A stretch of 64,000 nucleotides of DNA from a virus. Lineage: Duplodnaviria; Caudoviricetes. The position numbers and the translations under genes were made by a program. The DNA lies in the IMG/VR virus record IMGVR_UViG_3300014204_013734, positions 1-64,000 of that record, one strand, 5' to 3'. The notes under the pieces are model-generated. The model saw only the letters and a program-made list of their open reading frames with translations, ran no database searches and had not been told where the DNA came from. How positions within the stretch are numbered: position 1 is the first letter of the stretch; every line of letters begins with the position of its first letter. This document shows positions 35,124 through 58,888 of this stretch, in pieces.

Positions 35124-36608
35124 ATGTACGAATTTTCCATCGCCAGGAACATCCTGGGGAATCGGGAACCCTCTTTGCTCATGACGGACGGGTACAAGTT
35201 CGCCATGGCACAGGCAGGTTTTCCGCTGCGAACGGAAACCTTTTACATGACGTTCCGTCACGGGGGACCCTGGTACATCCCCTTTGACCTGGAAAAGATC
35301 GTGGAGGCATTCCTTCCGAATCTCCCGAAGGATGCGGAAAAAAACTTCTTGGAAAAAAGTGGCTATCGTCCTACCCCGGCGATGAGGGTAGCCCTCTACC
35401 AAGGCCTAAAAGTGGTCATTCGGGCCGCCCCGAAAGGATCTTGGGTCCTGGCTAAGGAACCCATCCTGACCATCACGGGTCCTTCCTTCCTAGTTTCCTG
35501 GTTGGAACCTTTGGTCCTGATGCTGCATTTCCCGATCCAGGTAGCCACGGAAGCCCTGAAGGGACGAAAAGAATTCCCTTGTACTTGTCGGGATGAAATG
35601 GGGATTGTGGCAGAAACCCTTGAAGTTACCCTTTCTTCCCTCGCTGGACTTCAGCTTACGGACGAATCCGTCCAATACCGGGCGGACGTTGCAAAGCGTT
35701 TGGCTTCCTTGATCAACGCCCTGGAAGACAAGGATCCGAAGCGCATCTTTGAAGTCGGGATGCGGGCATGCACCTGCATGGCCATGCACCGGATCGCCTT
35801 GGAGGAATGCAAGAAGGCTGGAATCACGGCTACTTCCAATGTGTTTTTGGCCAATGAACTGGACATGGTCGCTGTTGGCACCACGGGCCACGAACACATC
35901 CAACGGTGGGGAGACGACCTGACTGCCTGTCGGGCGATGCGGGACATGCGTCCCCAACGACCATCGTGTTTGCCCGACACGTTTGATGCCATGGGGCTGG
36001 GGCTTCCAGCCGCCCTCTTGTCTTTCCTGGAACAACCAAACCGGGAAGGAACGGTCAGGTTTGATTCCGGTGACCAGAAGCCCCAACTCTACGCCGTAGA
36101 AGGCGTGTCCCAAAAGCTACTTCTGAACAAGCCAAACTACATCTTTGAAGATGGCATTGATGAACAAAAGATCATCCGGGACGAGGATTGGTGCCGGGAG
36201 CTCGGCATTGCCCCCGAACGCCGGGCGTTTGGGTCAGGTCAGTTTATCGTGAGAGCCGAATTCACGTACATGACCCGCGACCGGGTTGCCGCCGTCTACA
36301 AGCTGTGCAAGACCGGGGACCTCCCCGTCATGAAGACCTGTGCTACGGCGCCGACCAAAGCGTCCGTGCCCGGCGTACCCGTCACGTTCCGCCGAGTTCG
36401 TGTCGGTGCCTGTGACCAAGCATACAACAGCTTCGCCGGACTGATCGGGCAGGAAGGGGAAACTCCCCCTGTCGGGTTCGTCTCGTTAGATTCCCGGCTT
36501 GGAAAGCCTGACTTTCCGGTAGACCCTATGGAAGTGGGGTTCAGCCCCGAAACGGAAAAGTTGATTGGCGACTGTCTGAAGCGCATTGCAGACAGCCAGT
36601 CGCTTTAA
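35124..36608 (+). CDS. pncB: Nicotinate phosphoribosyltransferase
   Basis: TDGYKFAMAQA; FEVGMRA; TSNV; GTTGHE; PDTFD; VRFDSGD. Confidence 0.8.
   Translation: MYEFSIARNILGNREPSLLMTDGYKFAMAQAGFPLRTETFYMTFRHGGPWYIPFDLEKIVEAFLPNLPKDAEKNFLEKSGYRPTPAMRVALYQGLKVVIRAAPKGSWVLAKEPILTITGPSFLVSWLEPLVLMLHFPIQVATEALKGRKEFPCTCRDEMGIVAETLEVTLSSLAGLQLTDESVQYRADVAKRLASLINALEDKDPKRIFEVGMRACTCMAMHRIALEECKKAGITATSNVFLANELDMVAVGTTGHEHIQRWGDDLTACRAMRDMRPQRPSCLPDTFDAMGLGLPAALLSFLEQPNREGTVRFDSGDQKPQLYAVEGVSQKLLLNKPNYIFEDGIDEQKIIRDEDWCRELGIAPERRAFGSGQFIVRAEFTYMTRDRVAAVYKLCKTGDLPVMKTCATAPTKASVPGVPVTFRRVRVGACDQAYNSFAGLIGQEGETPPVGFVSLDSRLGKPDFPVDPMEVGFSPETEKLIGDCLKRIADSQSL
36495..36523 (+). promoter_or_regulatory. Internal promoter motif upstream of nadE
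   Basis: CGGCTTG-N15-CGGTAGA. Confidence 0.55.
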
Positions 36609-37764
36609 AGAAAGGATCAAACCTATGCCTGTCCTTGACGGAGTTAAGTTGATTGAAAACCGAATTGAAGCGATTCGGGCATTCCACAAGAATGCCAGCA
36701 TCATCAAGGCCGAACTGGACCTGTCCGGCGGGATTGATTCCGCCGTCATGGCATGGCTTCTTGTCCGTGCCCTCGGACCGGAAAACGTTCTCTTGGTCCA
36801 TACCAGGATCAACACCGACTATAAGCAGACGGATCGGGCATCCCGTTTGGCTCAGGACCTTAAGGCGACGTTCGTGAACGTTGATCTGACCGGGCTTTTT
36901 GACATGTTGTCGTCCCAAATGATGGTCTCGCTTGGCGGGCCCGTTGGAACACCTGCCTGCAATCAGCTTAGTAAGCGGTGCAAAGAAGATCCGACCATCC
37001 TGGGATCCATCCGGTCCACACTCCGGGCACCCGTTGGCCGCGGATTCAACCGCATGTTCGGTGGTGGCATCCGCCACGGGACCGGAAACGAATGTGAAGA
37101 CCGTTACCTTCGCTTCTACCAAAAGGGCGGGGATGGGGAAGTTGACACGAATCCCCTGGAAATGCTTTCAAAGACCGAAATCTTCCAGCTTGCCTACACC
37201 ATCGCGGAAACCGAACGAGGAACCCCCCTGGAAGGAATCTTCCGCGAATTGATCACCGTGAAACCTTCCCCCGATCTGTGGGGAAAGGGTGACACCCATA
37301 ACGATGAAGATGAACTTCAATCGTGGACTGGGGTTTCCTTCACTTACGGGAAGGTAGACCCGTTGACCGGGGACATTCTGGAATTCGGGACCATTGAACG
37401 GGTGTCCCGGCTTCTGGACCAGAAGTTTGAAGTCCCAAATTTATGGTCCTTGGGTTTGTTCCCTGAAGGTACTCCCGTTCCTTTCCCCACGACCACTTGC
37501 GGGGAAGTCCTATTCAAGGATGACCTCCACGGACTGGATACCGTCTTGGATTGCATGGCACTCATTGCCGACAAAACAGGGATCTTTCGAAACACATTTT
37601 TTCCAGGAACATCACGCCGTCAGATCCGTGATTTTTTGCTTGCCGCCCGCAAGGCGGAAAGACAGACCCGTCACAAGGGGAACGGGAACATTCCAACCCT
37701 TGGTACACGGTCGGAACTGGTTGAGGCGGGCATCCTGACCGACAAACTGACAGTCAAGGGATGA
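36586..37764 (+). CDS. nadE: NH3-dependent NAD+ synthetase (start uncertain, alternative 36625)
   Basis: LSGGIDSAV; GTGNECE; FYQKGGDG; KPSPDLW. Confidence 0.85.
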   Translation: MQTASRFKERIKPMPVLDGVKLIENRIEAIRAFHKNASIIKAELDLSGGIDSAVMAWLLVRALGPENVLLVHTRINTDYKQTDRASRLAQDLKATFVNVDLTGLFDMLSSQMMVSLGGPVGTPACNQLSKRCKEDPTILGSIRSTLRAPVGRGFNRMFGGGIRHGTGNECEDRYLRFYQKGGDGEVDTNPLEMLSKTEIFQLAYTIAETERGTPLEGIFRELITVKPSPDLWGKGDTHNDEDELQSWTGVSFTYGKVDPLTGDILEFGTIERVSRLLDQKFEVPNLWSLGLFPEGTPVPFPTTTCGEVLFKDDLHGLDTVLDCMALIADKTGIFRNTFFPGTSRRQIRDFLLAARKAERQTRHKGNGNIPTLGTRSELVEAGILTDKLTVKG

Positions 37765-46281: not shown

Positions 46282-47130
46282 ATGGGCTACAAAGGGACGT
46301 TGCAACGTACTGATTTTGGGGATCGGATGAAAATGCTTGAATCAGGTACATCCGACCGCCTGATGCCTTTAGTGCCCGTCCTCGCCCGATTGGACGGACG
46401 GTCATTCCATTCCTTCTGTAAAGGGTTGCGCAAACCCTTTGACCCGTTCTTTGGAGTGGCCATGCAGCAAACTGCCGAATGGTTGGTTAGAAAGACGGGA
46501 GCCCTTGCAGGTTACACCCAATCGGACGAAATCACACTAATGTGGTTTTCCGACGATCCTACTAGCCAGAAGGTGTTTTTTGACCGGCGTCTCCTGAAAA
46601 TGGTTTCCGTACTTGCATCTTTAGCTACCGTCCGTTTCAACCAGAAATTCTCCGAAAACTGGCCAGATTTCATTGATCCGGAAAACCCGCCCGTGTTTGA
46701 CTGCCGCGTGTGGGTCGTCCCCAATAAGGACGAAGCAGCAAATTCCTTCTTGTGGAGGATCGAAGATGCCAAAACCAACAGCATCCAAGCGTTGGGGCAG
46801 GCCAACTTTTCCCACAACCGACTCCAGGGAATGAAGAACGGCGAAATCGTCGCCGCCTTGTTGTCGGAAAAGGGGATCAACTGGAATTTCCTGCCACAAC
46901 AATTTCGGTTTGGGACATTCATACAGAGGAAAACAGTCGTCCGCCCCTTCACCCATGAGGAATTGGAGAGGCTTCCCAAAAAGCACGAAGCCATAACCAA
47001 CCCAGGGCTCCTGGTTGAACGGTCGGACGTAACTACCATGCCCATGCCGGACTTCGGAAAAGTACAAAACCGCGTAGGGGTCCTGTTCAACGGGGAAGCC
47101 CCGATCATGCGCACGGAAACGTGCCCCTAA
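46282..47130 (+). CDS. tRNA(His) guanylyltransferase Thg1-like protein
   Basis: RLDGRSFHSF; YTQSDEI; FDCR. Confidence 0.9.
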   Translation: MGYKGTLQRTDFGDRMKMLESGTSDRLMPLVPVLARLDGRSFHSFCKGLRKPFDPFFGVAMQQTAEWLVRKTGALAGYTQSDEITLMWFSDDPTSQKVFFDRRLLKMVSVLASLATVRFNQKFSENWPDFIDPENPPVFDCRVWVVPNKDEAANSFLWRIEDAKTNSIQALGQANFSHNRLQGMKNGEIVAALLSEKGINWNFLPQQFRFGTFIQRKTVVRPFTHEELERLPKKHEAITNPGLLVERSDVTTMPMPDFGKVQNRVGVLFNGEAPIMRTETCP

Positions 47131-49210: not shown

Positions 49211-49283
49211 GTGGACGTAGATCAATTGGAAGATCGACAGACTGTGGCTCTGTAGGTTGCGGATTCGAACTCCGTCGTCCACA
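49211..49283 (+). tRNA. tRNA-His(GUG), no CCA
   Basis: Cloverleaf; anticodon arm ACAGA-CTGTGGC-TCTGT. Confidence 0.9.
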
Positions 49284-49284
49284 C

Positions 49285-49370
49285 GCCTGACAAACCCAAG
49301 CAGCCTCTCCGTGGCGTCAGGCATCAACCCGTGGAACCTGCCAAATAGGTTCACGGGGCCAAACGCTTGG
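49285..49370 (+). ncRNA. HDV-like ribozyme 1
   Basis: P1 GCCTGAC/GTCAGGC; P2 CCAAGC/GCTTGG; P3 GCC/GGC; J4/2 GCCAA. Confidence 0.85.
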
Positions 49371-49400
49371 AAATAAAATAATTCACTAGGCAGAAATCGT

Positions 49401-49476
49401 TCACCCTTAGCTCAGCGGTAGAGCGACGGGCTGTTAACCCGTGTCAGCACAGGTTCAATCCCTGTAGGGTGATCCA
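49401..49476 (+). tRNA. tRNA-Asn(GUU), CCA encoded
   Basis: Cloverleaf. Confidence 0.9.
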
Positions 49477-49488
49477 ATTTTTATCCAT

Positions 49489-49562
49489 AGTGACGAAGCC
49501 GAAGGAGTCGAGGCACCGGCCCGTCAAGCCGGATGAAGCGGGGGCGGGTCCCGTCGTCACTG
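49489..49562 (+). tRNA. Atypical tRNA-Asp(GUC), no CCA
   Basis: Stems intact; C33; T-loop GGCGGGT; G73. Confidence 0.7.
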
Positions 49563-49643
49563 GTCTGGTAAATCAAGCAGCCTCCACGTTGGCACCAGAC
49601 GGTAACCTACTATCCTAAGAAGAAGTAGGGCTAATTGCTTGAT
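49563..49643 (+). ncRNA. HDV-like ribozyme 2
   Basis: P1 GTCTGGT/ACCAGAC; P2 TCAAGCA/TGCTTGA; L3 TCCACGTT; GCTAA. Confidence 0.85.
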
Positions 49644-49690
49644 CAAGAATTTTTTGAATACTCTGAGAAAGGGTGGGTAGCTCCCATCCC

Positions 49691-49795
49691 GGAATCTGGA
49701 ACAACTGACCCGAAAGGGCGGTTCACCCAACAACCAGACTCTGACAAGGCTGGCGAGGTGGCAGAGACTGCAGGAACACTGTCGTTCCAGATTCC
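49691..49795 (+). ncRNA. Unassigned structured RNA
   Basis: 12-bp closing stem GGAATCTGGAAC/GTTCCAGATTCC with internal hairpins. Confidence 0.5.
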
Positions 49796-49807
49796 AAATT
49801 TTTTGAC

Positions 49808-49884
49808 CGGGGTGTAGGGAAGTAGGTATCCCACCTGGTTTGGGACCAGGAAACTCGCGAGTTCGACCCTCGCCACCCCGACCA
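49808..49884 (+). tRNA. tRNA-Pro(UGG), CCA encoded
   Basis: Cloverleaf. Confidence 0.9.
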
Positions 49885-49897
49885 TTTTTGATTCAAA

Positions 49898-49971
49898 CGG
49901 ACCGTGGGGCAGTCTGGTAGCCCGCGTGAATGGGGTTCACGAAGTCGCTGGTTCAAATCCAGTCGGTCCGA
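49898..49971 (+). tRNA. tRNA-Pro(GGG), no CCA
   Basis: Cloverleaf. Confidence 0.9.
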
Positions 49972-50059
49972 ATCCGATGATCCAAGCAGCTTCCACGATA
50001 GCATCGGATGTCAACCTGACAGAACCTTTTTCAAGGGGTTTCAGGGCTAATCGCTTGGG
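49972..50059 (+). ncRNA. HDV-like ribozyme 3
   Basis: P1 ATCCGAT/ATCGGAT; P3 GCT/AGC; GCTAA. Confidence 0.85.
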
Positions 50060-50066
50060 AAATAAT

Positions 50067-50143
50067 CCGACACTGGCCTAACCCGGTAAGGTGCGTGCTT
50101 CGGGAGCACGAAATTCCCGATTCAAACTCGGGGTGTCGGACCA
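50067..50143 (+). tRNA. tRNA-Pro(CGG), CCA encoded
   Basis: Cloverleaf. Confidence 0.85.
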
Positions 50144-50199
50144 TTTTTGGGTAAAAACAAGGAATTCCTTGTGGGATTTACTTTGTAAGGAACTGAGTT

Positions 50200-50760
50200 A
50201 TGGCAAGGACAAGTGTAATTTATAATCTTTCAACAGAAGAATTCAAAACTGTTGTAGAAGAAGCCTTTACAATGACGGACATATTAGAAAAATGTGGTCT
50301 TCGTCCTGTGGGGTCTAACCGAAAAACCGTTCAACGCAGGGCAGAAAAAGAAAATGTATCGCTAAAACATTTGAAAAGCATACAGGGAAAAAGACCATCC
50401 CAAGCAATCCCCTTGGAAAAAACAATGACGGAAGATTCTTCTTATAAAAGCAGCCGTCTAAAAGAGAGATTGGTCAAATTAGGTATTTTGACTGACCGGT
50501 GTTCCATTTGTGGCCAAGCCCCTGTTTGGAACGGTAAGCCTTTAGTGCTTCATTTGGATCATATCAACGGAAACCATGAAGACAACCGATTGGAAAATCT
50601 TCGGATTGTGTGTCCTCATTGCGATTCTCAACTACCCACGTACAAAGGGAGAAACAAGTACCACGCCCCTAAACCCAGATGCGATTGCGGGGCTGTGAAA
50701 AGCCGACCTTCAAAACACTGTCGGAAGTGTGAAGCTAAAAACCGAATTAAGAGATCGTAG
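50200..50760 (+). CDS. HNH homing endonuclease
   Basis: LHLDHINGNHEDNRLENLRIVCPHCDS. Confidence 0.9.
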   Translation: MARTSVIYNLSTEEFKTVVEEAFTMTDILEKCGLRPVGSNRKTVQRRAEKENVSLKHLKSIQGKRPSQAIPLEKTMTEDSSYKSSRLKERLVKLGILTDRCSICGQAPVWNGKPLVLHLDHINGNHEDNRLENLRIVCPHCDSQLPTYKGRNKYHAPKPRCDCGAVKSRPSKHCRKCEAKNRIKRS

Positions 50761-50826
50761 CTCAACTGGTAGAGCAAGTGGCTTTTAACCACTAGGTTGA
50801 GGTTTCGAGTACCTCCGATCTCACCA
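50751..50826 (+). tRNA. tRNA-Lys(UUU), CCA encoded
   Basis: Cloverleaf; overlaps the HNH stop codon. Confidence 0.9.
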
Positions 50827-50836
50827 TTTCTAATAT

Positions 50837-50898
50837 GCGGACATCGTCCACTCTTTACTGGCGGGAATACCGCCATCACGTTGAAGCTGCCCGCTCCA
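50837..50898 (+). ncRNA. Short tRNA-like element (Gly-like acceptor, U73, CCA)
   Basis: GCGGACA...TGCCCGC-T-CCA around a TGGCGG/CCGCCA hairpin. Confidence 0.45.
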
Positions 50899-50905
50899 AT
50901 TTTTT

Positions 50906-50981
50906 GGTCCCGTCGTCTAGTGGCCCAGGACGCTGGCCTTTCACGCCGGAAACACGGATTCGAATTCCGTCGGGACTACCA
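50906..50981 (+). tRNA. tRNA-Glu(UUC), CCA encoded
   Basis: Cloverleaf. Confidence 0.9.
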
Positions 50982-50994
50982 TTTTATTTTTTCA

Positions 50995-51023
50995 CGGCTT
51001 GGTTTCTTTTCCTGTTCGGTAGT
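50995..51023 (+). promoter_or_regulatory. Phage promoter motif heading the Y RNA/Ro60 unit
   Basis: CGGCTTG-N15-CGGTAGT. Confidence 0.75.
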
Positions 51024-51086
51024 ATGCGCGTGAAGCAGATTTTTCAGTGAAGCAGCTTCGGGTATAAGCAGAAGGTCTTTGAAAAA

Positions 51087-51156
51087 TGTCGGGGTGTGCA
51101 GTTTTCGGATACTTCATTGTCAAGAAAATACCGAAAACGATCAGTTGACCCCGACA
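51087..51156 (+). ncRNA. Y RNA-like 1 (short)
   Basis: Terminal stem TGTCGGGG/CCCCGACA; GTGCAG...TTGACC. Confidence 0.65.
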
Positions 51157-51166
51157 ATCGTTCTTT

Positions 51167-51243
51167 GCTTCCAGGGTGCAGAATGCGGTTACTCCAGACT
51201 TGTCATCTGATCCCGTACCGTATTTGACCGATTGCCTGGAGGC
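51167..51243 (+). ncRNA. Y RNA-like 2 (short)
   Basis: GGTGCAGAATGCGGTTACT; terminal stem TCCAGG/CCTGGA. Confidence 0.6.
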
Positions 51244-51251
51244 TCAATTCG

Positions 51252-51404
51252 TGAAAGTGAAGGCGGTGTGCAGATGTGCGGTTACTTCACATTTGGGGTG
51301 GGAGGTCGTGGGTTCAAGTCCCACCTTGGCCTTCGGGTCAAGTAGCTCAGTCGGTAGAGCGCCAAAACGTTACCGTCATCGCCTGTTGATCGCCTTCACT
51401 TTCA
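51252..51404 (+). ncRNA. YrlA-like Y RNA 3 with permuted tRNA domain
   Basis: T arm GGTTCAAGTCC precedes D arm TAGCTCAGTCGGTAGAGC; long terminal stem. Confidence 0.85.
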
Positions 51405-51422
51405 AGTTGATCAGGTTTCCTG

Positions 51423-51562
51423 TAACCCGGGTGTGCAGAATGCGGTTACTTCGGAAAAAATCTGGATATGGGGGTTCAAATCCCTCTGGAAGCGCAAGTT
51501 TCCATCGTCTAATGATAGGACACCAGATGATAAAGTCCGCATCCGATTTTTGACCTGGGTTA
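51423..51562 (+). ncRNA. YrlA-like Y RNA 4 with permuted tRNA domain
   Basis: T arm GGTTCAAATCC precedes D arm TCGTCTAATGATAGGAC; terminal stem. Confidence 0.8.
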
Positions 51563-51594
51563 ATTTCCACCCTTACCTCAAAAGGAGGTGTGCC

Positions 51595-53394
51595 TTGAAC
51601 TTCAGTAAGAAGACGAAAACGGAAGCGGCTGTATCGGTCACCAACAAGGCTGGCGGGAAAGGCTATCGTGCCTCCTCGGCTTTGGACGCCCTCATCATGA
51701 AAGTGGGGAAGCCTGGATTTTCCGAACCCACTTACTACGGCGATCCCCAGGAATCCATCATGAAGAAAATGGGGGACCTGGAAGTCAACGTGGAAAACTT
51801 GACCGAAGAGGCAGTATCCATCCTTGAGGACATTGTCCTGGCGGTCAAGGATGCCGTGCACAGCAAGAAGCAAGACGAGTTGGCGGATGTCCTCCGTCTA
51901 GCTTGTTACCTGCGCAACGAAAACAAGATCAGGATGACCCCACAGGTCATTCTGGCCATGTGTTCAAAGATTCCGGCACTCCAACACCTGTGCCGGCTGT
52001 ATGCCCCGAAGATCGTCGTGCGGGCGGACGAAATCAAAGAAGCCTTTGCGGCTGCCCGCTTCCTGTTCAACCCGGTTTCCAAAGATGACAAGTACGGTCG
52101 TGCGTCCCATCATGGGACCATTTCCAAGTCGCTGAAGAAGGCTCTTGGGGATTCCTTCTCCCGTTTCCCGGAACGGGACTTCCTCAAGTGGGCAGGCAAG
52201 GGAGACATCAGCTTCAAGGATGTCCTCCTGATGTGCTATCAGGCGTTTGACGGAAAGTCCAGACCCGCCAATTGGCCAGTCAGTCCCGCCATGTGGCGAT
52301 GGTTGGTGTACGACGAAGTCAGTGAAGCCGTTCCCCAAGCTTTGGCTTGGGAACAGTTGAACAAGCTGGCTACCTGGGGTGAGGAAGCTCGTGAATTGGT
52401 CCGGAAGTCCGGGGCTACGTGGGAAGTCATTGCTTCCAAGTTCGGCGGATCCACCGATCCGAAGCAGGCTGCGGAAGTGTGGGAATGGCTTGCGACGGCA
52501 ACGACTACGGACGGAAACAAAACACGCCGTGTCATGCCTTATCAGGCAACCTTGATGAACCTGCGCAACTTCGCGGAAAAGGGCGTATCCAACAAGGCCA
52601 AGAATGAAGTAGCCAAGTTCTTGGTTGAAGCGGCTCCCCATTCCCGCATGTTGCCGATGCAATTCATGTCGGCGAGGAAGGCCGTTGAAGACCCCTTGTT
52701 CCAGAAGGCTATTGCAATGGCCATTGACGCCACTGCGGATAGTCTGCCGGGGCTGCTTGGGTCTACGGTCGTGGCAGTGGATACTTCGGGGTCCATGGAA
52801 ACGCCTTTGGTCCAACGTCAGAATACATACCGCGGCAAGACCCAGAATCCCATGACGGTGAAAGAAGCGGCGTGTCTGCTCGGGGCCATTTGTTACCGCA
52901 AGGCGGAAGGATGGGCCATTATCGGGGCACTGGCGTCAGGTTGGTCTCAAATCAAGGTCAGCCAAACTTCATCCGTCTTGGACGTGGCCAACATTGTCCA
53001 CGAACGTAACGTTGGAGCCGGAACTAACCTGGGGGACCTGTTTGCTACCCTCAAGCAACAGAAGACGATGCCTGACCGTATTATCCTTCTGACCGACGGT
53101 CAAAGCTGGATGGGCGAACGTTCCTGTTATTACGGGAGCACCAGCGGTTCCTGCAACGACAACATCAAGGCATACCGGTCGGCGGGGTGGACCGGGCACC
53201 TGCATGAAATCCACATGGTTCCTTACGAAACCACGGCGTCCGAACCCGACAAGAAGTGTCACGTGTTTTCCAGTTATTCCGAAAATCTGGTCAACATGGT
53301 GCGAGCTGCAGAAGGGCTGGAAGCCGAGTCCGAAAAGGTGGACACCTTCAACGTGGAAGCCTTCAAGGCTGAAATGCGAAAGCTGTATCCGTAG
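51595..53394 (+). CDS. Ro60/Rsr-like TROVE + vWA RNA-binding protein
   Basis: AAGGAGGT RBS and TTG start; YLRNE...VVRADE; MPYQATLMNLRN; VDTSGSM; LLTDGQ. Confidence 0.9.
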   Translation: MNFSKKTKTEAAVSVTNKAGGKGYRASSALDALIMKVGKPGFSEPTYYGDPQESIMKKMGDLEVNVENLTEEAVSILEDIVLAVKDAVHSKKQDELADVLRLACYLRNENKIRMTPQVILAMCSKIPALQHLCRLYAPKIVVRADEIKEAFAAARFLFNPVSKDDKYGRASHHGTISKSLKKALGDSFSRFPERDFLKWAGKGDISFKDVLLMCYQAFDGKSRPANWPVSPAMWRWLVYDEVSEAVPQALAWEQLNKLATWGEEARELVRKSGATWEVIASKFGGSTDPKQAAEVWEWLATATTTDGNKTRRVMPYQATLMNLRNFAEKGVSNKAKNEVAKFLVEAAPHSRMLPMQFMSARKAVEDPLFQKAIAMAIDATADSLPGLLGSTVVAVDTSGSMETPLVQRQNTYRGKTQNPMTVKEAACLLGAICYRKAEGWAIIGALASGWSQIKVSQTSSVLDVANIVHERNVGAGTNLGDLFATLKQQKTMPDRIILLTDGQSWMGERSCYYGSTSGSCNDNIKAYRSAGWTGHLHEIHMVPYETTASEPDKKCHVFSSYSENLVNMVRAAEGLEAESEKVDTFNVEAFKAEMRKLYP

Positions 53395-53396
53395 CA

Positions 53397-53425
53397 ATGT
53401 TCCCCACGTATGTGGGGGTGTTCCG
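53397..53425 (+). repeat. Solitary type I-E CRISPR-repeat-like unit 2
   Basis: ATGTTCCCCACGTATGTGGGGGTGTTCCG, 29 nt. Confidence 0.65.
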
Positions 53426-53515
53426 ACCCTGTGGGAGAATATGGGGACGCCCTTCTTTCACAGGATCTTCCCGTGGGTTTGGGGGACGCCTTAAACCCAC
53501 GGGATCTTTTCATGG

Positions 53516-53592
53516 CGGGCCGTAGCTCAATTGGTTAGAGCGCAGTCCTGATAAGGCTGAGGCCGTGGATTCAATCTCCACCGGCCCGACCA
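53516..53592 (+). tRNA. tRNA-Ile(GAU), CCA encoded
   Basis: Cloverleaf. Confidence 0.9.
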
Positions 53593-53630
53593 ATTCCGTT
53601 CTTTAGGGTAAGTGTTTGTGGATGATTTGA

Positions 53631-53703
53631 TGCGGAGTGGAGCAGCGGCTAGCTCAGCAGGCTCATAACCTGAAGATCGGTGGTTCGAGTCCATCCTCCG
53701 CTA
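53631..53703 (+). tRNA. tRNA-Met(CAU), initiator-like, no CCA
   Basis: Unpaired 1:72; TGGAGCAG D arm. Confidence 0.85.
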
Positions 53704-53785
53704 ACCCGACAATTCCAGACAGCCTCCACGACGGCGTCGGGTGTCAACCTACCTAAAAGCTAAGGTAGGGCTAATTGTCTTGGAA
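53704..53785 (+). ncRNA. HDV-like ribozyme 4
   Basis: P1 ACCCGAC/GTCGGGT; L3 TCCACGAC; GCTAA. Confidence 0.85.
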
Positions 53786-53822
53786 AAACGACCCCCCTGA
53801 TTTCAGCAAGGAACATGACAAA

Positions 53823-54206
53823 ATGACCCCTGATTTTGACATTGCGGATGTGAAAGCCCCGGAAGGAAGGTCCATCAAATTCACCATTAGGGAACGTTTC
53901 GGACCCCGGGTGTGGAAGATGACAACTGTACGGACCCAGGACGATTGGGATCCGGTCATTGAACCGATGCGGAAACCGGAAGACATGAAAGCCGGTATGG
54001 ATATCCTGATCTGGTTAGGACAAGACGAATGCGGCAGGGACCATTGGAGAACCGAAAAGGTTCTGGAAGACCCTGTGGGATCGTTCCATACCATCCCCCG
54101 TGAAGATTGTTTCAGGCCCTTGCAGTTTGATGAAGACCGGCAGAGCTGGATCGAAGGCGGATTCATCTACCTTCACGGTATGGAAAGACTGGAAACCATC
54201 AAATAA
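53823..54206 (+). CDS. Hypothetical protein (start uncertain)
   Basis: ATG inside the 53775-54206 ORF with AAGGA upstream. Confidence 0.6.
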   Translation: MTPDFDIADVKAPEGRSIKFTIRERFGPRVWKMTTVRTQDDWDPVIEPMRKPEDMKAGMDILIWLGQDECGRDHWRTEKVLEDPVGSFHTIPREDCFRPLQFDEDRQSWIEGGFIYLHGMERLETIK

Positions 54207-54229
54207 GCCCTATGGAAAGGTAAGGAAAA

Positions 54230-54745
54230 ATGAAAGTTTCAGGACAGGATTTGATTCAAGCCATCAAGGAACAGTCACACCTCCGGGACCTTACCGAAAC
54301 GGAGTTTGAAGGATCCTTGTATGCCTTTCCCAGCGAAAGCAAGGATTCCCCGGAACGGGTTATGGAACGGCTCCTTGACATTGAAACGACAATTGCAAAG
54401 CTCCAGGCAGCGCAAGGGTTGTACAACCAAAAGGTCAAAGTGACGGTGTCTGGTGAAAACCTCACTTTGGCCGAAGCCGTCAAACGTATCGGGGGTTTGG
54501 CCCGTGTGGAAGCCTGTTGGCGGAAAACGGCGAAGTCTGGAGGGGAAGATCAGTTATACGGGCGCCGCATGGAAAGACCCGCAGTGGCCGACACGGAATT
54601 CGCCAAAAAGATGATTGAGGCTAAGGTTGCCAACCAGAAGGCAAAGGAAACTGCCAAAACTGTGGCTAACCTGCGTTCGGCCATTCAGGCCGGAAACACG
54701 AAGAGGGTTGAAATTGAAGGTTTGGACCCGGACTGCTTTGTGTAG
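54230..54745 (+). CDS. DIP1984-like coiled-coil protein
   Basis: LQAAQGLYNQKV.V....LTLAEAVK...LRSAIQAGN. Confidence 0.6.
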   Translation: MKVSGQDLIQAIKEQSHLRDLTETEFEGSLYAFPSESKDSPERVMERLLDIETTIAKLQAAQGLYNQKVKVTVSGENLTLAEAVKRIGGLARVEACWRKTAKSGGEDQLYGRRMERPAVADTEFAKKMIEAKVANQKAKETAKTVANLRSAIQAGNTKRVEIEGLDPDCFV

Positions 54746-54945
54746 TTCAGGTTCGGGATGCAAGTACCGCAAGGGAACGCGTCCAGACGTGGAAGACCAT
54801 TCAAATATACAGGATACGGATTCAATGACACCGCACCCCCACCTGATCCCAACGTCCCGATTGCTTAGGACGACAAAAGGGCATACTTGGTGTCGATCCG
54901 GATGCTCCCCTACTTCCTGCTTTCGGTCTTCCACGTTCTTGTCAA

Positions 54946-55018
54946 GGGGCTTTGGCGCAATTGGTAGCGCGTCTGCTTTGCACGCAGAAGGCAGGGGGTT
55001 CGAACCCCCCAAGCTCCA
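54946..55018 (+). tRNA. tRNA-Ala(UGC), no CCA
   Basis: Cloverleaf; G3-U70. Confidence 0.9.
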
Positions 55019-55099
55019 GTCCGACGATCCCAAGCGGCCTCCACGACGGCGCCGGATGGTTAACCTGTAGAAAGTTTCTGCAGGGCTAACAGCTTGGGA
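55019..55099 (+). ncRNA. HDV-like ribozyme 5
   Basis: P1 GTCCGAC/GCCGGAT (G-U first pair, one mismatch); GCTAA. Confidence 0.8.
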
Positions 55100-55131
55100 G
55101 AAATTTTCATGTCACAAGAAAGGAACCTGAA

Positions 55132-55332
55132 ATGATCCGTACCATTTGTAAAATGGCAATCAACACCCAAGACGACCTACCAGTTACCGACAAGGTGTTG
55201 TCCTTGGAAATTTTCCCAGTGAACAAGACTAACATGGTTTCCTTGTCCGTAGGGGATGAATTTTCCATTTCCGTAACGCTTGATGATCTGTATGCAGCGG
55301 TAGACGCTTTGTTTTCTTCACGCCCAGAATAA
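55132..55332 (+). CDS. Hypothetical protein
   Basis: AAGGA RBS; 66 aa. Confidence 0.6.
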   Translation: MIRTICKMAINTQDDLPVTDKVLSLEIFPVNKTNMVSLSVGDEFSISVTLDDLYAAVDALFSSRPE

Positions 55333-55429
55333 TTGGCCTAACATCCTTTTCAGGAAAAGGCTTCCAACGGAAAAGAGAAGGTTGACAGGGGCGTTGCATT
55401 GATGGACGCATGAAGGAAACAGCAAAAGA

Positions 55430-55645
55430 ATGGATGACAATCTAGACAGGGTTTTGGGTTTCTACGAACGGGCATTTGAGAAAATCCAAGAAAAGGTTTT
55501 CGGTCCTGAACTACGGGAACCCGTGGACCTGGAAACCATGAAACTCAGTATCCAAAGAGACTTGGGGGTTTCAGCCCAGGCAGTGGAACTGGTCCGTTTA
55601 GCTTTGGAACAAACGAAGAGCAAAACCAAGAAAGATTTGGTGTGA
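55430..55645 (+). CDS. Hypothetical protein
   Basis: 71 aa ORF. Confidence 0.55.
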   Translation: MDDNLDRVLGFYERAFEKIQEKVFGPELREPVDLETMKLSIQRDLGVSAQAVELVRLALEQTKSKTKKDLV

Positions 55646-55653
55646 TTTTCTTT

Positions 55654-55743
55654 GGAAGAGTCGCCTAGTGGCTTAGGGCGGCGGTCTTGAAAACCGCAGA
55701 TCCTTAACGGGATCCGAGGGTTCAAACCCCTCCTCTTCCGCCA
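55654..55743 (+). tRNA. tRNA-Ser(UGA), CCA encoded
   Basis: Long variable arm; G73. Confidence 0.9.
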
Positions 55744-55748
55744 AAATT

Positions 55749-55824
55749 TGGGCTGTAGCTCAGAGGATAAAGCAGCCGCCTCCTAAGCGGAAGATCGCGG
55801 ATTCGATTTCCGCCAGCCCAACCA
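55749..55824 (+). tRNA. tRNA-Arg(CCU), CCA encoded
   Basis: Cloverleaf. Confidence 0.9.
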
Positions 55825-55837
55825 ATTCCAAAACAAC

Positions 55838-55911
55838 CGGGGCGTAGTTCAGATGGAAAGAACACCGGCCTTCTAAGCCGAAAGTCGTGAGTTCAAGCCT
55901 CACCGCCCTGA
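55838..55911 (+). tRNA. tRNA-Arg(UCU), no CCA
   Basis: Cloverleaf. Confidence 0.9.
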
Positions 55912-55985
55912 ATCCGACGAACCTAAGCAACTTCCACGAAGTGTCGGATGTCAACCTGCAGAAACTGTAGGGCTAATCGCTTGGG
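55912..55985 (+). ncRNA. HDV-like ribozyme 6
   Basis: P1 ATCCGAC/GTCGGAT; P3 ACT/AGT; GCTAA. Confidence 0.85.
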
Positions 55986-56061
55986 AAATGATCCGTTCAA
56001 TGATTTCAAGGTAGGGTTTAGAAGTTCGTTCTTTGAAATACTTGAAAAGATACCTCATTTT

Positions 56062-56136
56062 GAGGGATTAACTCAGTGGTAGAGTGCCGGTCCTACAAAC
56101 CGGATGTCGGCGGATCGTTCCCGCCATCCCTCACCA
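56062..56136 (+). tRNA. Atypical tRNA-Val(UAC), CCA encoded
   Basis: C33; T-loop ATCGTTC. Confidence 0.75.
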
Positions 56137-56148
56137 ACCTATAACTAG

Positions 56149-56226
56149 CCGCCCGTCGCCCAACTGGAAAGGGCACCAGGCTACGAACCTGGAACAGTGG
56201 GGATTCGACCTCCTCCGGGCGGACCA
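56149..56226 (+). tRNA. tRNA-Arg(ACG), CCA encoded
   Basis: Cloverleaf. Confidence 0.85.
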
Positions 56227-56249
56227 TTTCATTCTGGGGGCTATCCAAA

Positions 56250-56278
56250 GTGTTCCCCACTTACGTGGGGCTGTTCCA
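56250..56278 (+). repeat. Solitary type I-E CRISPR-repeat-like unit 3
   Basis: GTGTTCCCCACTTACGTGGGGCTGTTCCA, 29 nt. Confidence 0.55.
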
Positions 56279-56303
56279 GGCGAGTTCAAACCTTGCCCCA
56301 GAT

Positions 56304-56376
56304 GCGGGAATAGCTCAGTTGGTAGAGCAATAGCCTTCCAAGCTATGGGCCACGGGTTCAAGTCCCGTTTCCCGCT
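56304..56376 (+). tRNA. tRNA-Gly(UCC), no CCA
   Basis: Cloverleaf; U73. Confidence 0.9.
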
Positions 56377-56463
56377 ACCCGGTCAAACCAGACAGCCTTC
56401 ACGACGGCGCCGGGTGTCAACCTGTGAATCCTTTTCAAAGGGTTTACAGGGCTAATGGTCTGG
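56377..56463 (+). ncRNA. HDV-like ribozyme 7
   Basis: P1 ACCCGGT/GCCGGGT; P2 CCAGAC/GTCTGG; GCTAA. Confidence 0.85.
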
Positions 56464-56476
56464 AAAACAATAATTT

Positions 56477-56551
56477 GCGAACGTAGTGCAGTGGTAGCAC
56501 GCAACCTTGCCATGGTTGAAGTCACGGGTTCAAATCCCGTCGTTCGCTCCA
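56477..56551 (+). tRNA. tRNA-Gly(GCC), CCA encoded
   Basis: Cloverleaf. Confidence 0.9.
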
Positions 56552-56563
56552 TTTTTTATTCAA

Positions 56564-56638
56564 AACCCTGTAGACTACCGACTAGGTCAGGAGCCCCTCA
56601 AGCTCCAGGAACGGGGTTGGCACCCGTCAGGGTTACCA
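56564..56638 (+). tRNA. Atypical tRNA with CUC anticodon (Glu), CCA encoded
   Basis: Stems intact; C33; T-loop TTGGCAC. Confidence 0.7.
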
Positions 56639-56641
56639 TAT

Positions 56642-56717
56642 GGGGCTGTAGCTCAGTTGGAAGAGTGCTTGCTTCGCATGCAAGAGGTCGGGGTTTCGAA
56701 TACCCCCAGCTCCACCA
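56642..56717 (+). tRNA. tRNA-Ala(CGC), CCA encoded
   Basis: Cloverleaf; G3-U70. Confidence 0.9.
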
Positions 56718-56720
56718 TTT

Positions 56721-57083
56721 TCATTCTTCCCAATCAGGTTCCCATGAAGCTTCAATTTCGGCATCGATGCGGGCCTGCCGGTGTTCCATCCGATGACAAT
56801 TGGGACAGAGGATTCGCAGGTTGTGCAGGCGGTTGTCATGATGGTCAAAATTGATGTGGTGGACTTCCAGGACTTCCGAACATAGGTCCCACCCGCAGCA
56901 ATCACACCTGTGGGGGTTGTTGCCGAAGGCGAGTTTCCTGTAGGACTTCAACTTCATGATCCGCCAGGACCGCCGATGCTTGCGGCAGCACCAAAACACA
57001 CCCGTTTTGGATCGGGCGATGGCAGCGGCAGTTCGGTAGATTGGTTTTCCACAGAAAGCGCATTGTTGGTTAGGATTGGGCAT
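56721..57083 (-). CDS. HNH endonuclease, antisense within the tRNA array
   Basis: LEVHHINFDHHDNRLHNLRILCPNCH. Confidence 0.85.
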   Translation of the reverse strand: MPNPNQQCAFCGKPIYRTAAAIARSKTGVFWCCRKHRRSWRIMKLKSYRKLAFGNNPHRCDCCGWDLCSEVLEVHHINFDHHDNRLHNLRILCPNCHRMEHRQARIDAEIEASWEPDWEE

Positions 57084-57118
57084 GTCAAGTTCCTTTCAGG
57101 GTAGAATACCCTGTTCGG

Positions 57119-57192
57119 TCTGGGATGGTCTAGTGGCAAGACTTTGGGCCTTGGACCCAAAAACGGAAGTTCGAACCTTCCTCCCAGAACCA
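57119..57192 (+). tRNA. tRNA-Gln(UUG), C33, CCA encoded
   Basis: Anticodon arm TTGGG-CCTTGGA-CCCAA. Confidence 0.85.
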
Positions 57193-57220
57193 TTTTCTTG
57201 AACCGAAAGGAAAACGAAAA

Positions 57221-57415
57221 ATGTCAACATGTAAAACGTGCGGAAAAACATGGACGAAAGACCATCCGGTTTCAAAATTCTGGTTCACATGCAAACCGGA
57301 TGAGGGAACCAGCGAAGGACATCCGTTTGACAATATGACAATCATCGGATACCCTAATTGCCGGCCAGACTGGCCCCCGCCGCCTGAATTGGAACCCATT
57401 TTCGGAGAAGGATAA
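57221..57415 (+). CDS. Hypothetical protein
   Basis: AAGGA RBS; CKTC. Confidence 0.6.
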   Translation: MSTCKTCGKTWTKDHPVSKFWFTCKPDEGTSEGHPFDNMTIIGYPNCRPDWPPPPELEPIFGEG

Positions 57416-57418
57416 TAC

Positions 57419-57658
57419 ATGCCTTGGGACGACAGATTGGTGTGGGAAAAGAAAGGCTTCATTACCTTCATTGGGGACGATGAATTTGAAGCTGAACTTG
57501 ACGACGGTTCTCTCTACCAGGGATGCAATGAAGATTTTTGCGTCCAAGAACAAAGTAAAGTATCCATCGGTCTGAGGATAATTATCAGGCATTGGAAAAG
57601 ACACTATCAGGAGGGACAGTATTCAGGCTTGAAGTTGTGGCAGACCGTCTTGGAATAA
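57419..57658 (+). CDS. Hypothetical protein
   Basis: 79 aa ORF. Confidence 0.6.
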   Translation: MPWDDRLVWEKKGFITFIGDDEFEAELDDGSLYQGCNEDFCVQEQSKVSIGLRIIIRHWKRHYQEGQYSGLKLWQTVLE

Positions 57659-57970
57659 CACCGTCACCGAAAGAAGAAACGACATGGAAAATTTCCTGTT
57701 TGTCGTGTTTTTGGTGAAATGTCCCGTGTGTGGGTCGGAAAAGATTTTCCTGGGTTTGGTTGGGACCAACATAGCCAAATGCCTCAACTGTAGTGCCCGT
57801 ATAATGCTGTCCTGAACCAACGGAGGACCGGTTGGCATGAAGACAATAGTAGAAATCTTTGGGGTACTTGGGATTGTAGTCTGCACTACCTTGAAATTTG
57901 ACAAAGGTGTAGACGTGTGCAAGAATCTAGTTCTCATGGTAGCCCCTTACGACATGAAAGACTGAATCAT

Positions 57971-58042
57971 GGCGGACTGCATCGGGTATGCCGGACGGTT
58001 TCATAAGCCGTTCCGCGAAGGGATCGTGTCCCTCGTCCGCTA
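57971..58042 (+). tRNA. Highly atypical tRNA with CAU anticodon
   Basis: GGCGGAC/GTCCGCT acceptor; ACGGT-TTCATAA-GCCGT; aberrant D and T loops. Confidence 0.55.
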
Positions 58043-58043
58043 C

Positions 58044-58114
58044 GTGGGTATGGCCGAGAGGCAAGGCACGGGTCTGCAAAACCCGGCACCCCGGTCCAAA
58101 TCCGGGTGCCCACT
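58044..58114 (+). tRNA. tRNA-Cys(GCA), no CCA
   Basis: Cloverleaf; U73. Confidence 0.9.
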
Positions 58115-58189
58115 GCCCGACAGAACCGAGCAACCTCCACGAAGGTGTCGGGCGTCAACCTATGGGAAACCACAGGGCCAATTGCTTGG
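58115..58189 (+). ncRNA. HDV-like ribozyme 8
   Basis: P1 GCCCGAC/GTCGGGC; P3 ACC/GGT; GCCAA. Confidence 0.85.
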
Positions 58190-58221
58190 ATAATTGCTTG
58201 GGTTAACAAGGAGGGATTCCG

Positions 58222-58888
58222 ATGGAACAAAGGCTGATTGAAATCAGGGCCGCCGAAGGCGGGGAAGATGCCAAGTTGTTGGTCAACGACCAGTTAGGGG
58301 TGTACACGAAGGTGTGTGCCATCTACGGTCTTTGAAACCGAATACATTGACGCACGTCCGGGTTTTATCAGCTTTACGGTCACCGGGGAAAAGGTTGCCG
58401 TATTTGACCAGGAAGCAGGTGGCCACAGATGGCAAAGGGTCCCCCCAACCGAACGAAAGGGACGGGTTCACACTTCAACAATAACGGTTGCCGTTCTCCC
58501 GCTTCGTGAATCCGTGGAATGCCTTGATTTGAAGGATGTAGTGATTGAAACCACGAGAGGTTCGGGACCTGGCGGGCAGCACCGGAACATGACGGACAGT
58601 TGTGTAGTCGTCCGGCACATCCCGACAAAAATCTCTGTCCGAGTTGACATGCGGTCGCAACACCAAAGCCGACGCATGGCTTTGGCCATCTTGTCGGCTC
58701 GGTTGCAGGAACGGGAAGAAACGGCTTCCCTGGACGCTGCAAACAAACAGCGCAAAAGCCAGATCGGTTCTGGTCAGCGTGGGGACAAGATACGTACCTA
58801 CCGGACACAGGATGACCTAGTGAAGGACCACAGGACGGGCAAGAAGATGTCCCTGCACCGTTGGGTAGAAGGAAGATGGGATTGGTAA
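58222..58888 (+). CDS. Class I peptide chain release factor-like protein (RF1-type PxT, GGQ), made via +1 frameshift at 58330-58335
   Basis: Frame 0 IEIRAAEGGEDA ends CTT-TGA; +1 frame has EAGGHRWQRVPPTE.KGRVHTS, GPGGQ, KIRTY. Confidence 0.85.

Follow-up and report, generated by a model that had tools for sequence, protein, structure and literature searches.

P4-bearing HDV-like elements as predicted self-cleaving 3′ trailers of CCA-less tRNAs in an environmental megaphage

Theta ribozymes are of the hepatitis delta virus (HDV)-like type in a minimal form without a P4 helix, described from gut phages (Kienbeck et al. 2024, PMC10879173). Their cleavage site lies at most 5 nucleotides (nt) from the 3′ ends of phage transfer RNAs (tRNAs), with 1753 unique examples, and only 4.5% of theta-linked tRNAs encode CCA (PMC10879173). 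Four theta ribozymes self-cleave in vitro and their C-to-U versions are inactive (PMC10879173). They occur in phages of Bacteroidota and Bacillota, with a frequent link to suppressor tRNAs and recoding, and the phages that carry them show strong enrichment for tRNA nucleotidyltransferase and for a DRB0094-family RNA ligase (PMC10879173). Their function has so far been described as limited to mammalian gut Caudoviricetes, and a regulatory role has also been raised; the removal of the 2′,3′-cyclic phosphate before CCA addition is not discussed in that work (PMC10879173). Here we describe a set of HDV-like elements with a P4 helix at the 3′ ends of tRNAs in a Caudoviricetes megaphage, the IMG/VR virus record IMGVR_UViG_3300014204_013734 (381,280 base pairs (bp), GC content 50.6%, CheckV completeness 72%). 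Eight of them lie in a tRNA array in the first 64 kilobases (kb) of the record, the stretch of DNA that was analysed and that we call the window.

Judged from its sequence, each element is very probably a canonical P4-bearing HDV-like ribozyme that a phage tRNA without CCA carries as its 3′ trailer, and self-cleavage at the tRNA end is, in our analysis, highly likely.

Placement, fold and CCA status of the elements

Calls from ARAGORN and Rfam were combined, and acceptor stems were also checked by hand. Together they place 22 tRNA genes on the plus strand of the window between 49211 and 59189, including a tRNA-Asp gene that ARAGORN missed and Rfam alone detects. Elements of 73–88 nt lie directly 3′ of eight of these genes: tRNA-His, Asp, Pro(GGG), Met(CAU), Ala(UGC), Arg(UCU), Gly(UCC) and Cys (Table 1). 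An earlier note on this DNA had pointed to tRNA-linked elements at the same eight genes; all are present, and fold and covariance model agree on them. In seven of the eight copies the first base of the P1 helix immediately follows the discriminator; in the His copy P1 starts after A73-C74, at 49285. The hand-read acceptor stems bear out this placement, which the note had also given.

The HDV topology was scored on a MAFFT alignment of the eight copies. It comprises a 7-bp P1, a 6-bp P2 crossing P1, a 3-bp P3, a one-pair P1.1 that joins loop L3 to the base after P1, and the first 5 bp of P4, 22 pairs in total. Across these pairs 98.3% of the alignment cells are paired, as against 27–44% when the 3′ partners are slid by 1–3 columns, and both sides change in 14 of the 22 pairs. 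None of 500 shuffles reached the observed pairing, compensatory-pair or covariation values, and the nested double pseudoknot that had been read in all eight copies is upheld by these figures. Adding the four further copies of the genome and three from metagenome contigs (15 copies) leaves 97.9% of cells paired and raises the compensatory pairs to 17 of 22; over the 8- and 15-copy counts the slid controls stay at 26–44%. By helix, the compensatory pairs in the two counts number 5–6 of 7 in P1, 3–5 of 6 in P2, 2 of 3 in P3, the single pair of P1.1 and 3 of 5 in P4. P2 and P1.1 serve as an independent check, because neither entered the covariance model described below as pairs; in the 15 copies P2 is 98.9% paired, with compensatory changes in five of its six pairs.

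The individual helices vary in sequence. P3 reads GCC/GGC, GCU/AGC, ACU/AGU or ACC/GGU in the window copies, the same four variants that the earlier note had listed. Its 7-bp P1 holds generally, but the Ala copy has an A·C mismatch at position 6; similarly, the switch of P1.1 from C-G in seven copies to U-A in the His copy stands, but the pair is not single throughout, since a second C-G pair is present in the Asp and Ala copies. Over the 12 genome copies P1.1 has 2 bp in four and 1 bp in eight. The first pair of P1 is A-U in four window copies, the count given before, G-C in three and G·U in one; the 15 copies hold eight A-U, four G-C, two G·U and one A·C. P4 extends to 6–13 bp in 11 of the 12 genome copies and to 3 bp in the copy after tRNA-Ser(CGA). 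The core is far less variable: junction J4/2 reads G-C-Y-A-A and L3 reads U-Y-Y-N-C-G in all 15 copies. Invariant throughout are the U, C and G of L3, the G-C of J4/2, including the putative catalytic C, and the next two A residues. We take these positions to correspond to U20, C24, G25, G74, the catalytic C75, A77 and A78 of HDV.

A covariance model, R1, was built from the eight window copies, as the earlier note had suggested, with P1, P3 and P4 as pairs and the rest as sequence. Run on the window with filters off, it returns exactly these eight (76.6–86.3 bits), and the next best match scores 12.1 bits. On the whole record it finds four further copies, all on the minus strand and outside the window, so that matches range from 58.7 to 86.3 bits against a 12-bit background. 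The start lies 0–1 nt past the discriminator in all 12 genome copies and in all three copies of two metagenome contigs, L021 and L059.

The state of the tRNA 3′ end follows the elements without exception. Of 36 tRNAs in the record, the 12 with an element all lack CCA and the 24 others all encode it, a split with a random-placement chance of 1 in ~1.25 billion (36 choose 12). Within the window eight element-linked tRNAs lack CCA and 14 others encode it; the note had the eight right and had counted 15 others. An encoded CCA is almost always followed by a T-run (CCATTTTT, CCAATT), for example at window positions 49884, 50143, 56551 and 57192, and this arrangement recurs in contigs L021, L141 and L142. 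The T-run may be a ribonuclease (RNase) E-type processing signal that marks an alternative 3′-end route. No T-run directly follows any of the elements, and a promoter and terminator scan gave nothing informative. Downstream of several copies lie open reading frames (ORFs); that of the Cys copy is a release-factor gene.

Relatives were sought by a pattern scan of JGI metagenome contigs, filtered by R1 and ARAGORN, which yielded the two contigs L021 and L059 with three copies, all at tRNA 3′ ends. L021 obeys the same rule: of its 16 tRNAs, the two without CCA, Gly(CCC) and Ile(GAU), each directly precede a ribozyme-like element (62.9 and 67.1 bits), and the remaining 14 encode CCA and a T-run. 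In L059 it is tRNA-Arg(UCU) that is linked. L021 and the window array have in common the gene order Ser-UGA, Arg-CCU, Arg-UCU, Val, Arg-ACG, Gly with ribozyme, Gly-GCC. Within these arrays Arg(UCU) and Cys encode CCA in L021 and carry a ribozyme in the window, and Ile(GAU) shows the reverse. The two 3′-end solutions thus appear to switch between corresponding genes of relatives; the orthology of these tRNAs is taken from gene order, because their identity (~70–80%) is too weak to establish it.

Further searches returned little. The strict pattern gave no match in IMG/VR viral contigs, and five matches to a looser pattern there were put down to chance, having neither an R1 match nor a tRNA. The looser pattern also gave 47 matches in 185,579 species genomes, none confirmed by R1; the subfamily is not found in prokaryote genomes by this pattern-scan route. 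Megablast of the array against GenBank phages returned tRNA-Gly matches only, and protein searches of viral contigs with the Ro-like protein of the array and a fragment of the 2H-nucleotidyltransferase described below found no close relatives. tRNA arrays are also present in more distant Ro-bearing phage contigs (43–45% identity), but without ribozymes and with CCA encoded by every one of the 18 tRNAs.

Relation to theta and other HDV-like ribozymes

The elements are P4-bearing relatives of theta ribozymes, and both the linkage to tRNAs and the missing CCA are already published for that class. The earlier note had correctly named theta as the known relative (PMC10879173). The supplementary examples of theta follow the layout P1, J1/2, P2, ACC, T, CC, ACGN, GGT, P1′, GG, L4, CTAA(N), P2′, with an L4 of 5–8 nt such as GTAACG or ATAACG and a total of ~53–60 nt (PMC10879173). 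As in theta, the predicted cut site abuts the tRNA 3′ end and the linked tRNAs lack CCA (0 of 12 here encode it). The cores agree in P3 (ACC/GGU or GCC/GGC), in L3 (U-C-C-N-C-G), in J4/2 (C-U-A-A) and in an RUAAC-type stretch after P1.1, and this phage too encodes a tRNA-type nucleotidyltransferase and a DRB0094-type RNA ligase.

The differences lie in architecture and setting. Theta has no P4, whereas here P4 spans 6–13 bp and the element 72–88 nt in 11 of 12 copies. The theta examples in the supplement have G at +1 and a 2-bp CC/GG P1.1; here the +1 base is A in eight of 12 copies and P1.1 is 1 bp in eight of 12. In place of a gut phage, the carrier is a megaphage from landfill and groundwater; its ORFs use the standard code, a suppressor tRNA was not found, and its one genome holds 12 copies. 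DNA of the array was found in one landfill metagenome run, probably its source, and in two groundwater runs of another study, and the setting is therefore not the gut. Among the traits that the earlier note had called less usual, three do set the elements apart from theta, namely P4 in full, A-U as the first pair and the copy number; the TCAA/GTAA linker does not, because theta L4 (GTAACG, ATAACG) and environmental HDV-like copies (GTAAACC) read alike. The comparison that it proposed, made here with Rfam models and published theta examples, gives a partial theta match, with P4, +1 and P1.1 differing, and no Rfam HDV model at threshold.

With canonical HDV-like ribozymes (RF00094, RF02682 HDV-F-prausnitzii, RF01787 drz-agam-1) the elements share the pseudoknot of P1, P1.1, P2, P3 and P4 and the J4/2 cytosine. 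Other environmental HDV-like copies have in common with them a CCUCCACG...GUAAACC-P4-GGGCUAA core but do not lie beside tRNAs. They come from freshwater and soil contigs (L016, L020, L025, L031, L063, L066, L075, L083, L023-L078), score 27–46 bits with R1 and, in the copies that the scan retrieved, have no tRNA nearby. These copies show the same core in a GGGAAGC... form of ~70 nt and a 96-nt form, in AT-rich surroundings and sometimes two to three per contig. The build of the tRNA-linked elements is thus that of ordinary HDV-like ribozymes. The novelty lies in its employment for the theta role, with a canonical P4, a first pair that is mostly Watson-Crick, a P1.1 of 1 bp, 12 copies per genome and a non-gut megaphage as the carrier. 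A full-text literature search found, besides the theta work, no paper tying HDV-like ribozymes to phage tRNAs.

Predicted cleavage and end healing

The elements carry all the sequence and structure hallmarks of HDV-like self-cleaving ribozymes, and they are placed so that a cut would set the tRNA free at its discriminator. In the route we propose, each element would fold after transcription into the nested double pseudoknot, and the J4/2 cytosine and a bound Mg2+ would catalyse an attack in which the 2′-OH of the tRNA's final nucleotide strikes the phosphate 5′ of +1. The tRNA would leave at the discriminator, or at C74 for His, with a 2′,3′-cyclic phosphate, and the ribozyme would keep a 5′-OH and stay joined to the downstream RNA, whether that is the following tRNA or an mRNA. 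The remaining two thirds of the tRNAs, with CCA and T-run, would presumably use ordinary host RNases. RNase Z is a protein that acts in trans, cuts after the discriminator of CCA-less precursors and leaves a 3′-OH, to which CCA is then added. The ribozyme would replace it on the CCA-less precursors here, with a cut at the same point and CCA addition to follow, but it would act in cis and should leave a 2′,3′-cyclic phosphate that requires additional healing. This phosphate would have to be opened and removed before CCA is added; the likeliest agents would be a phage 2H domain and the class II nucleotidyltransferase fused to it, with host enzymes as the alternative.

Several observations weigh against cleavage, and most of them also favour a reading in which the HDV-like shape serves as a protective 3′ structure, a terminator, or a protein or RNase site and never cuts. 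A stands at +1 in eight of the 12 genome copies, mostly in a Watson-Crick A-U pair, and only two have the G·U wobble. P1 position 6 is an A·C mismatch in three copies. The copy after tRNA-Ser(CGA) combines two P1 mismatches with its 3-bp P4, and this ribozyme may be weak or dead. At gathering thresholds Rfam finds only tRNAs and no ribozyme in the window, every HDV-family match being sub-threshold (at best RF02682 with 35.5 bits against 44, and RF00094 with 24.6 and 23.7 against 50), and a sequencing-run search with the array and with a 1.1-kb part of it listed no RNA run. The first pair of the HDV ribozyme is a G1·U37 wobble, and in HDV mutagenesis an A-U pair there lowers activity and does not abolish it; the wobble is a preference of the family and no absolute requirement of HDV-like ribozymes. 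A hairpin that only protects or terminates has no need of the invariant J4/2 C and A residues or of the L3 U, C and G, nor of a P1.1 pair that covaries from C-G to U-A; no T-run follows the elements, and close theta relatives are proven ribozymes (PMC10879173). We regard non-catalytic trailers as very improbable.

The pattern could also reflect the history of the genes, if tRNA-ribozyme units were mobile or duplicating cassettes, so that each tRNA kept the 3′ end of its origin and the ribozyme mainly insulated the unit or set a downstream 5′-OH. The ribozymes are alike (69% mean column identity) behind unrelated tRNAs, the CCA or ribozyme state varies between syntenic arrays, and several copies precede ORFs, all of which would suit such units. 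Yet the exact discriminator junction is kept in every copy, the compensatory changes indicate that the fold stayed under selection once the copies had diverged, a CCA-less tRNA needs some 3′ cut anyway, and neither HNH nor transposase genes accompany the units consistently. This account is improbable, though less so than trailers that do not cut. Unlikely too, but to be taken more seriously, is a licensing switch, in which cleavage occurs as proposed and the blocked 2′,3′-cyclic phosphate end withholds a third of the tRNAs from charging and shields them from 3′-exonucleases until phage phosphoesterase and CCA-adding activities act, possibly with a role in timing. The strict CCA-or-ribozyme split within one genome fits it, given that relatives manage with CCA-encoding tRNAs only; so does the location of the 2H-nucleotidyltransferase in a head-module protein, whose gene neighbours a capsid gene in a relative and which may enter with the DNA, and a regulatory role has also been raised for theta (PMC10879173). 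The ribozyme-linked isoacceptors differ among relatives, however (Arg(UCU) and Cys here, Ile(GAU) in L021), which argues against a fixed regulated subset.

For the healing step that self-cleavage would require, the phage offers candidate end-healing enzymes in a 2H-nucleotidyltransferase, a DRB0094-type RNA ligase and RtcB, the last with an intein. An ORF of 3122 amino acids (aa) encodes at its N-terminus a 2H phosphoesterase and a class II nucleotidyltransferase, and further holds a topoisomerase IB core and a weak zincin/ATLF-like match. The 2H domain (residues ~25–236) has the HxT motifs HTTF and HATI, and 27 relatives all keep H46, T48, H137 and T139. Its profile matches fall below cut-offs (PF13563, 21.4 bits; TIGR02258, RNA 2′,3′-cyclic phosphodiesterase, 25 bits, E 1.5e-5), and a sequence search against the PDB found nothing significant. 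An alignment-based AlphaFold2 model (predicted local distance difference test 87.5) has as its best PDB matches D. radiodurans CPDase (5h7e) and E. coli LigT, with E from 2.5e-7 to 1e-6. The nucleotidyltransferase follows an RVASRF junction (residues ~237–700) and matches PF01743 (E 2.7e-16) as well as solved structures of CCA-adding enzymes and poly(A) polymerases (E 1e-15), with the motifs GGAVRN, DVD, RRDFTFN and NDPSR readable. NF008137, a CCA addition/repair protein model, gives 54 bits against a cut-off of 451. Relatives of the 2H domain number 484, many within proteins of 1500–3400 aa. One relative of the 3122-aa protein, on the 101-kb contig L140 with the same polyprotein, adjoins a capsid gene and has no tRNAs within 10 kb. 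This gene content thus appears to parallel that of theta-carrying phages, because a nucleotidyltransferase-type domain and a DRB0094-type ligase are both present.

That the phage 2H-nucleotidyltransferase carries out healing and CCA addition is a tentative assignment, to which we give a little less than an even chance. Counting against it, models for PcnB and for CCA-adding enzymes score alike on the nucleotidyltransferase, all far below cut-offs, and LigT-type 2H enzymes leave a 2′-phosphate, for the removal of which no Tpt1 (PF01885), PNK 3′-phosphatase (PF08645) or HD (PF01966) domain was found in the 381-kb record (estimated 72% complete). Viral cGAMP and 2-5A phosphodiesterases are also among the fold matches of the 2H domain, and in a multi-enzyme head protein the modelled domain could instead degrade cyclic-nucleotide defence signals. 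The E. coli multifunctional CCA-adding enzyme joins a class II nucleotidyltransferase to an HD-domain phosphohydrolase able to act on 2′,3′-cyclic phosphate ends. It would be a functional analogue of the phage pair, in which the phosphoesterase instead has a LigT/CPDase-type 2H fold and is N-terminal, inside a 3122-aa protein. A wholly self-contained route, with ribozyme cleavage in cis, opening of the cyclic phosphate by the 2H domain, CCA addition by the fused nucleotidyltransferase and delivery of the polyprotein with the capsid, is conceivable but rather unlikely; it would make a third of the tRNAs usable only with phage enzymes and independent of host RNase Z-type and CCA-repair activities.

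Genes of the array and implications

The array and its surroundings hold further genes for RNA and translation (Table 1). Directly after the Cys ribozyme, whose P2 3′ strand AATTGCTTGG recurs 4 nt downstream as AATTGCTTGGG (window 58180–58202) and offers an alternative P2 partner or a duplication scar, lies a release-factor gene in which a stretch of 36 codons terminates at CTT TGA. One continuous protein of 221 aa (P0002) results from a +1 shift at CTT-T, a prfB-style site, and it contains GGQ as well as PPT, a PxT-like motif. Release factor 1 (RF1) domains 2–4 match it best and PrfH is weaker; from its sequence, P0002 is an N-terminally truncated RF1-like factor, and it appears to share the frameshift trick of RF2. 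A YrlA-like Y RNA within the array is directly followed by a TROVE/Ro60-like protein, whose relatives (43–45% identity) also lie among phage tRNAs. Together with RtcB, in which an intein of ~340 aa sits between RtcB profile positions 50 and 49, the Y RNA and the Ro60-like protein resemble, on their sequences, the bacterial rsr-yrlA-rtcB RNA-repair set. Upstream of the array lies a gene for a Thg1-like tRNA-His guanylyltransferase. The phage tRNA-His has A73 as in eukaryotes, not the bacterial C73, with G encoded at -1, and the enzyme may restore G-1 on tRNA-His trimmed by host RNase P. Two HNH endonuclease-like ORFs between tRNA genes may be homing elements that reshuffle the array, and genes for nicotinamide adenine dinucleotide (NAD) salvage lie further upstream.

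Table 1. Positions of the tRNAs, HDV-like elements and other genes (the window is the first 64 kb of the record)
Feature	Position	Strand	Characteristics	Evidence
tRNA-His(GUG)	49211–49284	+	A73 and encoded C74, without CCA; G encoded at -1 (49210)	ARAGORN, Rfam, acceptor stem read
His ribozyme	49285–49370	+	P1 GCCUGAC/GUCAGGC, P1.1 U-A, 12-bp P4, J4/2 GCCAAA	R1 77.3 bits; RF02682 35.5 bits, below gathering score 44
tRNA-Asp(GUC)	49489–49562	+	G73, without CCA	Rfam tRNA 38.9 bits; stem read
Asp ribozyme	49563–49642	+	2-bp P1.1, J1.1/4 GGUAA	R1 85.8 bits
tRNA-Pro(GGG)	49898–49971	+	Without CCA	ARAGORN, Rfam, stem read
Pro(GGG) ribozyme	49972–50059	+	A-U first pair, P3 GCU/AGC, 12-bp P4; next tRNA 7 nt downstream	R1 86.3 bits
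tRNA-Met(CAU)	53631–53703	+	Initiator-like (U1·U72 mismatch, A11:U24, read from sequence), without CCA	ARAGORN, stem read
Met ribozyme	53704–53785	+	Single bulged U in P2	R1 85.2 bits
tRNA-Ala(UGC)	54946–55018	+	G3·U70, A73, without CCA tail	ARAGORN, stem read
Ala ribozyme	55019–55098	+	G·U first pair, A·C mismatch at P1 position 6, 2-bp P1.1	R1 76.6 bits; RF00094 23.7, RF01787 18.6, both sub-threshold
tRNA-Arg(UCU)	55838–55911	+	Without CCA	ARAGORN, stem read
Arg(UCU) ribozyme	55912–55985	+	P3 ACU/AGU, 7-bp P4	R1 80.9 bits
tRNA-Gly(UCC)	56304–56376	+	U73, without CCA	ARAGORN, stem read
Gly(UCC) ribozyme	56377–56463	+	L3 UUCACG, 13-bp P4	R1 85.4 bits
tRNA-Cys(GCA)	58044–58114	+	U73, without CCA	ARAGORN, stem read
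Cys ribozyme	58115–58189	+	P3 ACC/GGU; P2 3′ strand repeated at 58194–58202	R1 80.3 bits
Ribozyme after tRNA-Ser(CGA)	record 79144–79208	-		R1
Ribozyme after tRNA-Thr(CGU)	record 81722–81803	-		R1
Ribozyme after tRNA-Ser(GGA)	record 85861–85946	-		R1
Ribozyme after tRNA-Leu(CAG)	record 86323–86394	-		R1
NAD salvage genes	35124–37764	+	Nicotinamide phosphoribosyltransferase-like, NAD synthetase-like	PHROG 448, 11189
Thg1-like tRNA-His guanylyltransferase	46282–47127	+		PHROG 4717 E 3e-74; PF04446 E 7e-28
HNH endonuclease-like ORF	50200–50757	+	Between array tRNA genes	Weak Pfam matches
YrlA-like Y RNA	51278–51379	+		RF02553 38.4 bits, E 1e-5, below gathering score 69
TROVE/Ro60-like protein	51433–53394	+	Within tRNA array	
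HNH endonuclease-like ORF	56721–57080	-	Between array tRNA genes	Weak Pfam matches
Release-factor gene (P0002)	58222–58888	+	+1 shift at CTT-T	NF001859 (RF1 domains 2–4) 199.8 bits, below cut-off
RtcB	record 69052–71661	-	Intein	PF01139 in two parts, PF14890 Intein_splicing
2H-nucleotidyltransferase ORF	record 146071–155439	+	3122 aa	

The theta-type arrangement at tRNA 3′ ends thus extends to full-size HDV-like ribozymes and to environmental megaphages, with 12 of 36 tRNAs in one genome. As each tRNA uses one of two 3′-end solutions and the same isoacceptor differs between relatives, the arrays form a natural comparison set. The twelve divergent, active-looking copies are a possible natural ribozyme library for exact tRNA 3′ ends in synthetic tRNA arrays. 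The fused 2H phosphodiesterase-nucleotidyltransferase is a concrete, testable candidate for the healing step that the theta paper leaves undiscussed (PMC10879173). If a licensing switch did operate, these tRNAs would need phage enzymes before they could be used, and their use could be scheduled.

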